Of a stretch of 64,000 nucleotides of DNA, positions 23,955 through 27,900 are shown piece after piece; within the stretch, counting starts at the first letter, position 1, and every line of letters begins with the position of its first letter. The DNA is taken from NCBI GenBank assembly GCA_000004695.1, contig CM000151.3, forward strand, positions 1-64,000. The letters are read 5' to 3'. Below the pieces are notes generated by a model, which saw only the letters and a program-made list of their open reading frames with translations, did no database searches and had not been told where the DNA came from. Made by a program: the position numbers and the translations under genes. This DNA is from Dictyostelium discoideum. Lineage: Eukaryota.

Positions 23955-24480
23955 AACATAAAAGGAAAATAAACAATTAACTAATTGGACCTCCGGGCAA
24001 CCGGCAGGCATCCAAATTATGGAAACGATACAGAGAAGATTACCATGGTCCCTGCGTAAGGATGACCGTAAAGCAATCAAGAAGAAAAACATTTTTTCCC
24101 TTTTCTTTTTATTTTTTTTTTTTTTTTTTTTTTTTTTTTTTTTTTTTTTTTTTTTTTTTTTTTTTTTTTTTTTTCTTGCTTTTCGAGGTTCTTTGATATG
24201 ATGCTGTTAATATTGGGATAATATAAGAATTAAAAGAGTGACATTCACTCCTATCCCGACATCAATCAAAAACGAGAATAATCAACTATTATCATTAGCA
24301 GAATGGTATGAAGAAATTCACAAAATGGACACATACATTTCAAAGACTGAATTTCAATCGTCTCTCAACTAGAGTGGATATAGTTATGATCAAATATTCG
24401 AGAATATTTTATAATAAAAGATCACAAAAGACACAATGTTTAGATTCATGCGAGATGTTTACCATTTAACTATATCCACT
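23955..24480 (+). repeat. left arm of a long inverted repeat (pairs with 27530-27900)
   Basis: Base-by-base comparison of 24181-24470 with the reverse complement of 27541-27790 shows ~90% identity with small indels. Similarity continues outward (23961-23995 vs 27866-27900). The left arm carries an extra ~95-bp GC-rich insert plus a T63 run (24112-24174). Confidence 0.8.
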
Positions 24481-24996
24481 ATGAAGATTGTATGCTATGC
24501 AGTGAAAATTTGGGAGAAGATCCATATGGACATCGCCTCTTTAAATGTGAGAGAACATTAGAATTTATTTTTTACCTCATTGATTGAATTACTTCATTTA
24601 CATTTTCAGGCCGCGGTATGACACATTGACTTTAAAACTTACATATTTTTACTGTATTCCCCCAATATATGGAGAAGGATCATGATGTTAACATAGACTA
24701 CGCATATCTTAGATTCCACGGAGAATACTTCGGATGGGGATATTAATGTGTACACTATGACCTATCTGGAACCTTCGCATTTAGACAATTATTGCACTTG
24801 TAATTTCTACGTCCCTAATGATTTCCTTGAACAATTGTCATATTAGGATATTATCTTGCTAAGTATATTGTATTTCGGTACCAGTGCTCCCGATTCTCAT
24901 CTCATTCGACCATTTCATCTAAGAAACTACGTTATTATTATTTGTAAATACCAACGAGTTTAAAATTGATCTAAAAAAAAAAAAAAAAAAAAAGAA

Positions 24997-25857
24997 TTGG
25001 ATTATTTCGATGTTATTAAACATCCGATGGATTTAGGTACTATCAAGGGTGAATTGGATAATAATGGATATTCAACTATTAAAGATTTTACAGCAGATGT
25101 TAGATTAATGTTTGAAAATGCATTAACTTATAATGCAGATTCATCACCAATTTGGAAACATGCTAAAACATTACTCTACTTTCATGTTTTTACAAAATTT
25201 CCCAAATGAAAAACCTCCGACCTATAAACCACCACCACCTACCCAACTCCAATCCCAACACAACAACAACAATCAACTTCTTCAACATCAACACCAACCT
25301 CTGAAAAAAAGAGAAAACATGATGAACATGTTAAAGTTAAAGAAGATACAAATTCTGCTCAACCAACTCTTCTTCGTCTTCAAATCATACAAATAGTGAA
25401 AATGCTTCATCTTCATCTTCATCTTCATCTTCATCTTCATCTTCATCTTCATCTTCATCTTCATCTTCATCTTCATCTTCATCTTCATCTTCATCTTCAT
25501 CTTCATCTTCATCTTCATCTTCATCTTCATCTTCAAAACAATCAAATAATTAATAATAATAGTAATAATAATAATAATAATAATAATAATAATAATAATA
25601 ATAATAATAATAATAATAATAATAATAATAATAATAATAATAATAATAATAATAATAATAATAGTAATTCAACAACAAATTCATCATCATCATCATCATC
25701 ATCATCATCATCATCATCATCATCATCATCATCAACTACTACAACACAAAAGAAATACTCTGATGAAGAAAGAAGGAATTTAATGGAAAGAATTAATGAA
25801 TTAGCTCCTGATTATGTTCAAGAGGTTTTAAATATTATCGATCCAAATGCAAGCTGA
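24997..25857 (+). pseudogene. fragmented BET-family-like gene: bromodomain C-terminal half (frame 1), [14 protein letters not shown] segment (frame 2), (CTTCAT)n then poly-N/poly-S and an ET-like domain (frame 3); no 5' half present
   Basis: [60 protein letters not shown] is the second half of a bromodomain. YSDEERRNLMERINELAPDYVQEVLNIIDP resembles the BET ET-domain core. The three segments lie in different frames with shifts at A-runs. The sequence directly upstream is an A21 run and repeat-arm DNA, not coding. Confidence 0.5.
25405..25535 (+). repeat. (CTTCAT)~22 hexamer array (reads LH, SS or FI repeats depending on frame)
   Basis: Direct read. Confidence 0.9.
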
Positions 25858-26081
25858 TGAAAGTCTTGAAATCGATATGTATCAAATTGATGATAAAAAT
25901 GTATCACAAGTTGAATCATTTATTAATGAATGTTTTAAAAAACAAAAACAATATGAATAAAAAAAATAAAAAAATAAAAAAAAAACTTTACTTTTTAAAA
26001 TTTAAATCCATAAATAAAACTCTTTATTTTTGTTTATTTCCTTTATTGGATACTCTATGATTAATAAATATTTTAAAAAAA

Positions 26082-27520
26082 TATGATGCTATTCATTTAT
26101 TAACTATTGTTGTCCTTTCTGAAAACCAGGTTATTGGTCCACCTTTTTGAGTGCTATGATTTGGTGTTTTGGTATGTTGTTGCGAGGTTAGTGTTTGTTG
26201 TGACCATGGTTATTTTCATTGAGAGACCCTCATTAAGTTGACATAGTCTGCTCATATCTTTATTTCCATATATATTACTTTGGATGGGGATATAATTGAG
26301 TATATTATTTATAAGAACCTTCCCATGTTGAGAATATATAATTCATTCTGGGTGAATCACTTATATTTAACTCTTTCTTAATTTATTATTTAATTATTAA
26401 GATGTTTATAAAAAAAAAAAAAAATTTATTTTTTCAATCATTTAACTTTATTTTTTTAATTGTTTAATTGTTTAACTGTTTATTTTTTAATTAATGTACG
26501 AGTTCTTCCATTAATGGAAATCAATCTAGAGAGGAAATTCGTATTCAATCCCAGAAGCATACATAACCAATAGTTTCGATCCAAAATTACCATAAGAATT
26601 AAATACTTTTAAAAAGGTAAATTTTTGGTCAAAGAGGTTTCTCCTTACATCAATGATGCTAGTTGTAAAGAAAAGAACATGCTTTCCCTTTATTTAATGA
26701 TTCCATAATTATTATTATTATTATTTTTTTTTTTATTTATTTTTAATAAATGTAATTATTTAATTAATTACATTTTGATTAAGAAACCATATTAATTATA
26801 ATTTTTTTTTTCAAGACATAACTATGAGTGTCTAACTTGGAAAAAAAAAAAAAAAATTATTTATTTTATTTTATTTTATTTTATTTATTTATTTATTTGT
26901 TTTAATATTAACCATATTGATTTTGTAATCACAAAAATGAGCAAATTTGACCTGACTTTACAATATATATATTTTTTTTTTTGAATTCCAAAATTTCATT
27001 TGATTATTCTTTAAGATTGAACTTTTTTTTTCTTTGTTGTCCTCAAGAAATTTATTTATATCTTTGGTGGTTTTTTTTTTAAATTTTATTTTATTTAAAA
27101 TTAAAACATTTTTTAAATTATAAATATTATATTTATAATAACAAATACTTACAATATAATTTTTAATGTAAAAATTATTATATTTTTTTTTTATATTATC
27201 ACCATTTTTTTTTTTTTTTTAAAAAAATAATTATAGTTTAACCTTCCAAGAAAATAAAAAAAATAATCAATGTTTTTTTTTTATTTTTAAATTTTACAAA
27301 TTAACGGTTAATCAAAAGCCCTCTGAAAATAAAGATATAAATAAATTTCTTGAGGACAACACGAAATCATAGCAGATGTCTTCTACTGCATGGGCATCTA
27401 TGACCCTAACCCAATCAACAGGGAACCACTCAATAAGGTGTACCAGTAACCTGGTTTTCAGAGAGGACAACAATAATTAATTAATATTGTAAAAAAAAAA
27501 AAAAATAAACAGCATCATAC
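26082..27520. mobile_element. ~1.44 kb non-autonomous DNA transposon-like element with ~95-bp imperfect terminal inverted repeats
   Basis: Left end ATATGATGCTATTCATTTATTAACTATTGTTGTCCTTTCTGAAAACCAGGTTATTGGTCCACCTTTTTGAGTG. Reverse complement of the right end is GTATGATGCTGTTTATT(T)nACAATATTAATTAATTATTGTTGTCCTCTCTGAAAACCAGGTTACTGGTACACCTTATTGAGTG. No long ORF inside. Its interior (26230-26340) is directly similar to 24650-24760. Confidence 0.7.
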
Positions 27521-27529
27521 TTTTTTTTT

Positions 27530-27900
27530 ATGGGCAACATCTAGCATGAAATCTAAACATCGTGCCTTTTGTTTTGGGATCTTTTTTTATAATATCCTCT
27601 CAAGTTGAGTGACGATTGAATTCAGTCTTTGGAATCATTGTGTTCGTTTTGTGAATTTCGTCATACCATTCTGCTAATGATAATAATTGATTATTCTCGT
27701 TTTTGATTGATGTCGGGGTGGGATTGAAGATCACTCTTTTAAATCTTATATTATCCCAATATTAACAGCATCATATCAAAGAACCTCGAAAAGCGAGAAA
27801 AAAAAAAAAATAAAATAAAAAAAAAAAAAATAAAAAAAATAAAAAATAAAAAGAAAGAAAAGGAGGTCCAATTAGTTAATTGTTTATTTTCCTTTTATGT
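27530..27900 (-). repeat. right arm of the long inverted repeat (pairs with 23955-24480), abutting the right TIR of the 26082-27520 element
   Basis: See left-arm evidence. The terminal motif TATGATGCTGTT occurs four times (24197+, 26083+, 27520-, 27776-). Confidence 0.8.

Follow-up and report, generated by a model that had tools for sequence, protein, structure and literature searches.

The palindromic region at 23955–27900 of the analysed Dictyostelium discoideum DNA (hereafter the window, 64,000 nucleotides in all) probably represents, at roughly 70%, a U6 snRNA gene followed by a TRE3-type retrotransposon insertion carrying a piece of a BET-family gene, which was later inversely duplicated and has since decayed. 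A sequence-only reading had proposed a composite or foldback DNA transposon for this region, and the candidate "new foldback DNA transposon" reduces to known classes, namely a U6 gene, debris of TRE3, and an inverted duplication that has decayed. Its other proposal, that an inverted duplication had captured or disrupted a BET gene, comes close to the evidence in that a local inverted segmental duplication does exist at the locus. The left U6 gene is likely the sole functional part, and the rest of the structure is non-functional debris and largely ordinary genome wreckage. The modestly new point is a host coding sequence apparently retro-copied by a TRE3 element downstream of U6.

The U6 spliceosomal snRNA gene is located at 23986–24096 on the plus strand, is closed by a T-run terminator (TTTTTT at 24091–24096), and is probably DDB_G0295505, a U6 gene ID taken from the literature (PMC5981456). 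Rfam model RF00026 matched 23990–24096 with 64.5 bits, against a gathering score of 44, with the ACAGAGA box present, and the same gene in the second D. discoideum assembly scored 69.7 bits. At the position of the AGC catalytic triad, the window reads ACC (C at 24043) and the second assembly AGC (G at 24043); this C, flagged here as a base error or variant in the U6 catalytic triad of this sequence, is likely a sequencing error or a strain variant. It is reported that the motif [AT]CCCA[AT]AA stands ~63 bp upstream of Dictyostelium ncRNA genes (PMC3188802; PMC7919456). The DUSE promoter element ACCCATAA at 23923–23930 (plus strand), 63 nt upstream of the U6 5′ end, fits the published motif in sequence and spacing; it lies outside the inverted repeat and is missing from the right arm. 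A T-rich spacer (24097–24175) and a 21-nt unique flank (24176–24196), together covering 24097–24196 on the plus strand, lie between U6 and the insertion site. The second assembly has a T-run shorter by 35 nt, and a T-run likewise stands 3′ of U6 in a divergent lineage (L006). The sequence-only reading had overlooked the U6 gene inside the left arm and the retrotransposon ORF2 sequence in the arms.

The inverted copies of ~90% identity described earlier at 23955–24480 and 27530–27900 are real. In a blastn comparison of the region with the 64-kb window, 24112–24381 aligned with 27860–27592 at 90.4% over 270 bp (E 8e-103), and two further inverted pairs within the window joined 23937–23994 to 27920–27862 (95%) and 24409–24465 to 27592–27530 (81%). 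With the T-run excluded, 26 of 265 aligned bases (9.8%) are substituted between the arms, and there are 35 gap positions besides. The left arm (23951–24468, plus strand) comprises U6 positions −36 to +12, the U6 body, the T-run, the 21-nt flank, the target-site duplication (TSD), and the TRE3 fragment over its initial ~260 nt. The right arm (27520–27920, minus strand) holds, in minus-strand order, U6 −36 to +12 (27905–27862, with similarity extending to ~27920), an A/T-run (27861–27797), a copy of the 21-nt flank (27796–27776), a copy of the 5′ TSD (27775–27764), TRE3 ORF2 aa ~953–1044 (27763–27530; tblastn match 27758–27531), and A9G (27529–27520). It is without the U6 body, which is missing through a 107-nt deletion at a 3-nt TCC microhomology, and without a counterpart of window 24469–~26072.

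The duplication extends beyond the two arms. An inverted copy of the 3′ TSD and segment X, which is the right "TIR" of the supposed inner element, occupies 27425–27519 (minus strand), and an inverted copy of 27035–27065 occupies 27331–27361 (minus strand) with 31 of 31 nt identical; the stretch between them (27362–27424) has no source assigned. Three nested collinear inverted pairs (23951–24468/27920–27530, 26082–26155/27519–27425, and 27035–27065/27361–27331) share one common centre at ~27066–27330, which is made up of the part of the spacer block I1 downstream of 27065 and an AT-rich stretch (27155–27330, no strand assigned) between I1 and the first inverted segment. The inverted copy is also without the ~0.9-kb block 26156–27034, and three blocks are kept out of ~3.1 kb.

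The 12-mer TATGATGCTRTT has exactly four occurrences, at 24197 (+), 26082 (+), 27519 (−), and 27775 (−), and at most one mismatch from it lie 8 observed matches versus 0.92 expected from shuffles. The count agrees with the earlier claim of a terminal motif recurring four times in the expected orientations, but the motif is not a transposon terminus. The 12-mer TATGATGCTGTT at 24197–24208 (plus strand) is the 5′ copy of the 12-bp TSD of a retro-insertion, and TATGATGCTATT at 26082–26093 (plus strand), identical at 11 of 12 positions, is its 3′ copy; the motif is present four times as a result of the later inverted duplication of the entire segment from U6 into the intergenic DNA. The direct 12-bp repeat brackets a composite, poly(A)-ended insert of 1,873 bp (24209–26081). 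Its junctions run 5′ flank, TSD, TRE at the 5′ end and AATAAA-A7, TSD, segment X at the 3′ end, and the right half shows the same order on the minus strand. Among the genomes compared, none yielded an empty target site.

The first part of the insert (24209–24994, plus strand) is a 5′-truncated, degenerate TRE3-type non-LTR fragment, the start of whose homology can be placed only to within a few nt of the 5′ TSD. It contains ORF2 aa ~953–1261 of 1261 with the CCHC zinc finger, the 3′ UTR, and an A22 tail at 24973–24994, which ends the fragment 54 nt past the last ORF2 match. When ORF2 from L001–L005 was used in tblastn, linked HSPs were obtained at 24214–24447 (61% identity) and 24447–24800 (41%) with a combined E of 7e-44, together with a third segment at 24842–24919 that is weak alone (E 0.015). 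The C-terminal ~300 aa of ORF2 are matched, and the APE and RT parts are missing because of the 5′ truncation. The protein identity of 41–61% to the TRE3 copies compared suggests a different or old TRE3 subfamily. The distance from the U6 3′ end to the start of the TSD is 101 nt (66 in the second assembly), and the insert has the orientation of U6; full-length TRE3 relatives begin 63–105 bp after tRNA genes in the orientation of the tRNA gene, and the full-length TRE3 in L004 has a 10-bp TSD adjoining its poly(A) tail. The downstream position relative to tRNA genes is the published definition of TRE3, and tRNA genes are its known targets (PMC5006619; PMC5391098); no report of U6 as a target was found in the literature on TRE3 targeting. 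The original downstream flank of the target (26094–26424, plus strand) contains segment X (26094–26217), to which no source was assigned, an older degenerate TRE3 ORF2 fragment (26218–26339), and an A15 run (26410–26424), all on the plus strand. The older fragment resembles 24669–24792 at ~72% (local score 94 versus 38 ± 6 for shuffles), so that the "partial direct copy" described at 24480–24990 is borne out for this part only.

The second part of the insert is a BET-family coding remnant (24995–25960, plus strand) with the second bromodomain half, a microsatellite linker, the ET domain, and a TAA stop at 25958–25960. It is followed by a 3′ UTR-like tail (25961–26081, plus strand) with AATAAA at 26063–26068 and a terminal A7 (26075–26081) abutting the 3′ TSD. 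Pfam matches to positions 28–83 of 84 of the Bromodomain (E 1.2e-18) and to the BET/ET domain (E 2.5e-13), a reading spread over three frames by at least four frameshifts without an intact ORF, and the lack of a BET 5′ half anywhere in the 64-kb window all bear out the earlier description of a bromodomain-half and ET remnant in three frames without its 5′ part. The fragment begins exactly at the A22 tail of the TRE element and stops at AATAAA-A7, directly before the second TSD copy. Judged by this junction anatomy alone, the BET sequence was apparently retro-copied. A search for its parent or source among Dictyostelium sequences retrieved no BET relative. That TRE3 retro-copied the BET 3′ half, whether through 3′ transduction or a template switch, and that the insert landed downstream of U6 at the distance typical of TRE3, is an even call.

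Related species have a short spacer without U6 at this position. The block I1 (27035–27154, plus strand) is ancestral DNA of the spacer between atg7 and an SH3/PH gene and is orthologous to D. cf. discoideum (L011), where 9352–9238 matches it with 89% identity over 120 bp and where I1 is directly joined to the homologue of window 27921 onward. No U6 was found within 10 kb of atg7 in L011, L007, or L008. In the divergent lineage L006, the order is U6, T-run, TRE fragment, inverted partial U6, and finally the same U6 5′ flank in inverted orientation, running into the same spacer; the inversion is therefore old, with its decay taking a different course in each lineage. The locus offers an example of a small palindrome decaying differently in sister lineages.

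These features may be arranged into a history of four steps. The U6 gene with its DUSE and T-run terminator, directly visible at 23986–24096, is a Pol III gene whose downstream side would have served as the landing zone. A single target-primed reverse-transcription event would then have brought in 1,873 bp some 100 nt (in the second assembly 66 nt) beyond the 3′ end of U6 and made the 12-bp TSD, a mechanism suggested by the observed anatomy. The incoming sequence would be the 5′-truncated 3′ end of a TRE3-like element with its A22, followed directly by a BET 3′ half, from an mRNA or a gene, with an AATAAA signal and A-run of its own. Its simplest origin may be 3′ transduction, with TRE3 reading through into an adjacent BET gene at the source locus, although a template switch or two successive insertions would produce the same layout. 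The older TRE3 fragment (26218–26424) would already have been present downstream before the insertion, an arrangement at the U6 locus that is like the TRE tandems described in the literature. Next, at least 3.1 kb, from the U6 proximal promoter to I1, would have been duplicated in reverse, with the copy inserted between I1 and the spacer block that follows; the duplication itself is observed, and its geometry points to fold-back or template-switch replication with the turn at ~27066–27330. Finally, as the present sequence displays, the inverted copy appears to have lost the U6 body, a 1.6-kb block (24469–~26072), and a ~0.9-kb block (26156–27034) and to have reached ~10% divergence. Later deletions and multiple template switches would be alike in outcome.

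The alternative of a composite or foldback DNA transposon (24197–27775, with ~270-bp TIRs) enclosing a nested 1.44-kb TIR element (26082–27519), both ending in TATGATGCTGTT, is scarcely tenable. It draws on two nested inverted-repeat pairs that each start with the same 12-mer, on a TA dinucleotide beside all four 12-mers, and on a size of 3.6 kb with ~270-bp arms, near that of Tdd-4/Tdd-5 (3.8 kb, 260–297-bp TIRs; PMC2836005). However, the inverted repeat does not stop at the 12-mer but extends ~250 bp further, into the U6 promoter, the sequence interior to the 12-mer is TRE3 ORF2, the same-strand 12-mers are direct repeats around a poly(A)-ended insert, and the termini are TATGA, not TGTNR. 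The flanks of both supposed elements are reverse complements (outer TTTGA/TCAAA; inner A-run/T-run), so neither has a direct TSD, and the arms consist of the U6 promoter and 5′ end, the T-run, and the truncated TRE3 ORF2. Translations of the region gave TRE ORF2 and BET only. No integrase or transposase similarity was detected by tblastn with all ORFs of at least 120 aa from seven loci, integrase-bearing ones included, which matched only TRE3 ORF2. Neither the rest of the window, nor ~240 kb from 11 other Dictyostelium loci, nor JGI metagenomes yielded a further copy. As for the inner element with its ~95-bp TIRs, the inverted similarity stands (26095–26153 versus 27485–27427, 90% identical, fading beyond), but the element does not, since it holds the ancestral spacer of D. 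cf. discoideum (L011) at 27035–27154 and has no TSD. The probability of an assembly artefact, by palindromic misjoin or collapsed repeat, is next to nil, even though palindromes and long homopolymers are error-prone and the T-run length differs between the two assemblies. The structure, about which the sequence-only reading had raised this concern, is not a misassembly, because the second assembly, GCA_054883475.1 (L009), which is possibly not independent of the first, forms a single collinear 14.8-kb alignment with window 18000–32793 at 99.5% and because the arms differ by ~10%. Within 23600–28300, the two assemblies differ at 38 positions, 35 of which concern T-run length, and the order and breakpoints are identical. 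The 9.8% substitutions between the arms, their indels, the 107-nt U6 deletion, and the distal junction of the inverted copy, common to the divergent lineage L006, also speak against an artefact.

Three further explanations accept the sequence and differ on how it arose. Two convergent U6 genes may have existed first, each hit independently by TRE3, so that the similarity of the arms would reflect parallel insertions; L006 does have convergent U6 copies with just one TRE fragment between them, and TRE3 inserts in a set orientation with respect to the Pol III gene. Against this very improbable course, both arms have in common the 5′ truncation point, the 21-nt flank, and both TSD copies in order, and the right TRE piece stops inside ORF2 (aa ~1044), with an A-run and then the second TSD copy after it, as in a deletion derivative rather than an independent poly(A)-ended insertion; this course would also leave the inverted copies of X and I1 unaccounted for. 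The BET fragment may instead be the remnant of a resident gene destroyed by insertions rather than retro-copied, and the lack of a parental BET gene among the sequences searched and the several frameshifts, which make the fragment old, are in its favour. This is nevertheless unlikely, as the interval from atg7 to the SH3/PH gene is free of BET sequence in L006, L011, and L007, the 5′ half is missing from the window, and the fragment sits exactly between the A22 tail and AATAAA-A7 with the second TSD copy. Non-LTR elements are known to generate 5′ inversions, as in L1 twin priming. With all duplicated blocks lying within a retroelement landing zone, the inversion itself may be the work of the retrotransposition machinery (twin priming or an inverted read-through transcript) instead of a product of DNA replication or repair. 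This is quite improbable: twin priming acts on one RNA, whose adjacent segments it inverts without duplicating them, while the right half duplicates the non-transcribed U6 promoter (−36 to −1) and the ancestral spacer I1 and lacks both a poly(A) end and a TSD of its own, with no TSDs visible around 27155–27920. The reading of a U6-linked TRE3-type insertion followed by inverted duplication is preferred here to all of these.

Among known systems, the Tdd-4/Tdd-5 transposons (Ginger2/TDD) resemble the locus in size (~3.6–3.8 kb) and in inverted arms of ~260–300 bp. They have TGTNR termini and a 5-bp TSD (PMC2836005), whereas the locus has neither of these nor an integrase-like ORF, and its arms are U6 flank and TRE3. 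Dada DNA transposons, which target U6 and other small RNA genes, offer a parallel for a mobile element tied to a U6 gene. However, Dada integrates within U6 itself, at a fixed position and with 6–7-bp TSDs, and encodes a DDE transposase (PMC3706591), while U6 is intact here and the element is a retrotransposon downstream. Fold-back palindromic duplications, formed by template switching or hairpin priming, are similar in their nested collinear inverted segments with one centre beside the template and in their asymmetric decay by deletion, one deletion here being at a 3-nt microhomology; the copy at this locus differs in being discontinuous, and its fold-back origin is suggested by the geometry.

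The insert shares with TRE3 the ORF2 C-terminus with its zinc finger, the poly(A), the 5′ truncation, a 10–12-bp TSD, and a placement ~100 bp 3′ of a Pol III gene whose orientation it shares, stacked beside an older TRE fragment. It departs from the TRE3 norm in that the Pol III gene is U6 and not a tRNA gene, and in the host BET sequence after the poly(A) tail. A TRE3-type insertion at the canonical distance from U6 suggests that the target may be recognised through the Pol III machinery generally and not through tRNA genes as such; if true, TRE3 targeting extends from tRNA genes to U6 with its upstream (DUSE) promoter. The order TSD, truncated 3′ end, internal poly(A), host sequence, AATAAA, A-run, and TSD is like that of LINE-1 3′ transductions and template-switch chimeric retrocopies. 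Such a layout is the signature of 3′ transduction. The chimeras compared were the mammalian U6-L1 chimeras and the tripartite chimeric pseudogenes of Magnaporthe (PMC2104539). The layout has not been described for TRE elements, and unlike in U6-L1 chimeras, U6 is here the genomic target gene with its own promoter and not a retro-copied part. D. discoideum is reported to be without processed pseudogenes (PMC3159450). If the present reading is true, it holds retro-copied cellular sequence, contrary to that published lack, and the TSD-flanked TRE3-BET composite would be a rare case in which a TRE element mobilised host coding sequence.

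The structure occupies a 6-kb spacer in the AT-rich window (G+C ~20%), between atg7 (20345–22738, minus strand) and a divergently oriented SH3/PH gene starting at 28810. The spliced reconstruction of Atg7 (707 aa) has the same length as AX4 Q86CR9, falls in its 90% cluster and shares 97% identity with the cluster representative. The feature is a U6 snRNA gene with a TRE3-BET retro-insertion flanked by a target-site duplication (TSD); it later became part of an inverted segmental duplication that is old and decaying.

The left arm (23951–24468, plus strand) is a genuine repeat, as the sequence-only reading had it, but the U6 gene inside it had been overlooked; an Rfam scan places it at 23990–24096 (plus strand, 64.5 bits). 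A DUSE octamer, ACCCATAA, lies outside the repeat at 23923–23930, ~63 nt from U6, and fits [AT]CCCA[AT]AA, the upstream sequence element of Dictyostelium, for which a distance of ~63 nt has been published (PMC3188802; PMC7919456). Alignment of the arms revealed that the right arm (27520–27920, minus strand) retains the stretch from −36 to ~+12 of U6, and that the U6 body was deleted at a TCC microhomology. This right-hand stub has no DUSE and goes straight into the T-run, and the left U6, with DUSE and terminator, is likely the only active gene. A D. discoideum U6 gene was named DDB_G0295505 in a CRISPR paper; we infer that it is the gene of this locus, which may be the only U6 gene. At position 24043, the window carries C (catalytic triad ACC), while a second D. 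discoideum assembly (GCA_054883475.1, locus L009) carries G, giving an intact AGC triad and a higher Rfam score (69.7 bits); the C is either a base error or a strain variant. The T-run after U6 (24112–24146) exceeds that of L009 by 35 nt, owing either to a length polymorphism of the homopolymer or to uncertainty in the assembly. For a possible B-box downstream, in cgaggttctttga, just GGTTC agrees with the consensus.

A look-up of the 417-aa ORF product from the left end of the window led to five loci of GCA_054883475.1, each containing a two-ORF non-LTR element (ORF2 of 1261 aa; L001:11173–14955). In all five, the element has the orientation of a tRNA gene and starts 63–105 nt beyond its 3′ end. 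TRE3 is described as inserting "~100 bp downstream of tRNA genes", with each element terminated by a poly(A) tail and TRE-TRE tandems upon repeated targeting (PMC5006619; PMC5391098). Residues 959–1038 of ORF2 match 24214–24447 (61% identity) and residues 1039–1164 match 24447–24800 (41%), the two segments being linked with a combined E of 7e-44; the final 26 residues weakly match 24842–24919 (E 0.015), and an A22 run follows at 24973–24994. Since the reference elements match the published definition, 24209–24994 reads as a 5′-truncated TRE3-type element of which the 3′ end is left; it is oriented like U6 and begins ~100 nt after the gene, or 66 nt in the second assembly with its shorter T-run. 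The right arm matches ORF2 residues 959–1044 at 27758–27531 (minus strand). The outer arms, the supposed TIRs, are duplicated U6 flank and the start of the TRE3 fragment. The match behind a supposed partial direct copy of an inner element is real, albeit weak (24680–24789 / 26230–26335), but the sequence itself is the rest of the TRE3 ORF2. Its counterpart at 26218–26339 is a second, older TRE3 ORF2 fragment (local score 94; shuffles, 38 ± 6) with an A15 run behind it (26410–26424), and the neighboring segment X (26094–26217) has no similarity to the TRE fragment. The TRE3 fragments are degenerate, with stops and frameshifts; a search with the TRE fragment returned no match, and a search for the exact product encoded at 24308–24469 was empty.

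Another TRE3 element lies in window 1–2366 (ORF1 356–1609, minus strand; 5′ end ~1780). It follows, at a distance of ~75 nt, a tRNA-like gene (~1860–1935, minus strand, B-box GGGGATCGAATCCC) for which ARAGORN gave no call. Collinearity of the window with GCA_054883475.1 is broken at 1787, and the 580-bp unit 1787–2366 occurs at least 4–5 times, in both orientations, in loci L003 and L012. A cysteine/histidine-rich 560-aa ORF (2782–4464, minus strand) adjoins transposon sequence, is single-copy in the protein index and has no Pfam match.

An exact search of the window found the 12-mer TATGATGCTRTT four times, in the orientations claimed for a terminal motif; a search tolerating one mismatch gave 8 matches, compared with an expectation of 0.92 in shuffled sequence. 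The left 5′ junction reads …cgaggttctttga / TATGATGCTGTT / aatattggg… (TRE ORF2), and the left 3′ junction …gattAATAAAtattttAAAAAAA / TATGATGCTATT / catttattaac… (segment X). The 12-mers TATGATGCTGTT and TATGATGCTATT are thus direct repeats on one strand around a 1,873-bp insert (24209–26081) that has a truncated retroelement at its start and a polyadenylation signal and A-run at its end. This arrangement marks the 12-mer as an apparent TSD and gives the insert the signature of target-primed reverse transcription; the full-length TRE3 in locus L004 has a like signature with a 10-bp duplication. The target site before insertion would read …cgaggttctttgaTATGATGCTGTTcatttattaac…, downstream of U6.

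The insert is composite, its TRE3 3′ end and A22 run being joined directly to a BET fragment (24995–25960) with a 121-nt 3′ UTR-like tail. The BET-like remnant recognized earlier was confirmed by Pfam (Bromodomain positions 28–83 of 84, E 1.2e-18; BET/ET domain, E 2.5e-13); it runs over three frames, with stops and frameshifts, and lacks its 5′ half across the whole 64 kb. A retroelement 3′ end followed by poly(A) and host sequence is the classical picture of LINE-1 3′ transduction, and the composite could have arisen in this way, by read-through from the retroelement into an adjacent gene at the source locus. It might also derive from a template switch, or from two insertions in succession accompanied by a deletion at the target site, of the kind reported for TRE5-A. 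Judged from the junction anatomy, the odds that this is a TRE3-mediated retro-copy of a BET gene are about even. No BET parent was found in the protein searches and metagenome scans run: the fragment search returned solely a plant GTE11-like protein, an exhaustive representative search gave mostly multi-bromodomain proteins, and the metagenome scans yielded only bromodomain relatives of ≤62% identity.

Repeat pairs were detected by blastn of 23500–28500 against the window. The main inverted pair, 24112–24381 / 27860–27592, is 90.4% identical over 270 bp (E 8e-103), in agreement with the ~90% estimated earlier, and extends to 23937–23994 / 27920–27862 (95%) and 24409–24465 / 27592–27530 (81%). 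An inner pair (26095–26153 / 27485–27427, 90%) and a perfect 31-nt pair (27035–27065 / 27361–27331) are also inverted. On the minus strand, the block order of the left half recurs in the right: U6 5′ flank (27905–27862, with similarity to ~27920), T-run (27861–27797), the same 21-nt flank (27796–27776), a TSD copy (27775–27764), TRE ORF2 residues ~953–1044 (27763–27530), A9G (27529–27520), a second TSD copy (27519–27508), segment X (27507–27425) and the 31-nt copy from the atg7/SH3-PH spacer DNA at 27035–27154 (27361–27331). The right half is, on this sequence evidence, an inverted copy of 23951–27065 minus the U6 body, 24469–~26072 and 26156–27034. An inverted copy with three missing blocks accounts for all features listed in the sequence-only reading, whose own alternative of an inverted duplication is supported. 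Two TSD copies, each occurring twice, make up the four 12-mers, and the "inner TIRs" of the 1.44-kb element proposed at 26082–27520, though a real inverted pair, are the duplicated second TSD and segment X rather than element ends.

The same locus was reached in other assemblies and species via Atg7 orthologues. In L009, the Atg7 product is identical to the AX4 sequence, and window 18000–32793 is collinear in a single 14,794-bp alignment (99.5%), with 38 differing positions in 23600–28300, 35 of them T-run length. Because of this agreement, and because the arms differ by 9.8% substitutions plus indels, a palindromic misassembly is ruled out, assuming that the two assemblies are independent. 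A divergent "D. discoideum" lineage (L006, ~88% identity) has U6, T-run, a short TRE ORF2 piece and an inverted partial U6 (ACAGAGA to 3′ end), with the same inverted U6 5′ flank and spacer as window 27862–27960 ~900 bp beyond. This arrangement indicates that the inverted duplication predates the split of the two lineages and apparently once included the U6 body; different deletions have since decayed it in each. In D. cf. discoideum (L011), the atg7/SH3-PH spacer is just 1.4 kb, without U6, and a 120-bp homologue (89%) of window 27035–27154 is directly joined to the homologue of 27921 onward. This join argues that part of the 1.44-kb element is ancestral spacer and that 27155–27920, the right half, was inserted between two ancestral blocks. 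No U6 lies within 10 kb of atg7 in D. firmibasis (L007) or D. dimigraforme (L008), where atg7 is turned around with respect to the adjacent genes.

Several further differences were observed. Both atg7 and a PRKCSH-like gene (glucosidase II beta; 30658–33154) are flipped in place relative to D. firmibasis, whose atg7/SH3-PH spacer is only ~110 bp; atg7 is also flipped relative to D. dimigraforme. In L006 (5134–5556), the full and inverted partial U6 share lineage-specific substitutions, among them two in the internal stem-loop that compensate each other (GG..CC to GA..UC), an indication of either gene conversion between the two copies or re-duplication. The DUSE position of L006 reads ACCATAA, with two Cs. 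An LTR-retroelement integrase-like fragment was recognized by eye (…STRATTHASTGLF…) at L006 4400–4700, with the inverted partial U6 on one side and the inverted U6 5′ flank on the other; it may belong to an element of Skipper-2/DGLT type, and this class, too, has been reported downstream of Pol III genes.

The inverted pairs and the recurring motif had been read as a composite or foldback DNA transposon, which is not supported, as it failed all available tests. The supposed ends are flanked by reverse complements and not by direct repeats, and the window contains no extra copies of the unique parts of the arms, segment X or the 12-mer context; nor do eleven other Dictyostelium loci (~240 kb, five transposon-rich) or JGI metagenomes, the scans of the latter giving no match to segment X. 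The TGTNR ends, 5-bp TSD and integrase content of Tdd-4/5 (PMC2836005) are all unmatched, and a TA duplication of the Tc1/mariner-like type was rejected because the 12-mer is directly repeated on both sides of an insert ending in poly(A). Dada transposons, which target U6, were rejected as well: they encode a DDE transposase and insert inside the gene. The reading as a U6-TRE chimeric retrogene was dismissed because U6 carries its own DUSE promoter and the right arm holds untranscribed promoter sequence. An inverted repeat generating hpRNA/siRNA was not favoured, the arms having just ~69% DNA identity to the intact TRE3 copies compared; sequence analysis gave no evidence for a function of the inverted structure.

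For the inverted duplication, the three collinear inverted blocks are nested about one centre (~27066–27330), with the copy directly beside its template. From this geometry, we infer fold-back/template-switch replication, which would turn within the ancestral spacer, copy back along the new strand and rejoin the original template. The missing blocks could reflect template jumps during the event or later deletions. The latter are favoured, as the U6 body was lost at a TCC microhomology and the structure in L006 has decayed in another pattern.

Small inverted duplications are of an already known kind, and so is TRE3 debris in the vicinity of Pol III genes. Less ordinary would be a TRE3-mediated retro-copy of host BET sequence. 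The TRE papers (PMC5006619; PMC5391098) make no mention of U6 as a TRE3 target, and likewise less ordinary is a TRE3-type insertion at the canonical distance downstream of U6 instead of a tRNA gene.
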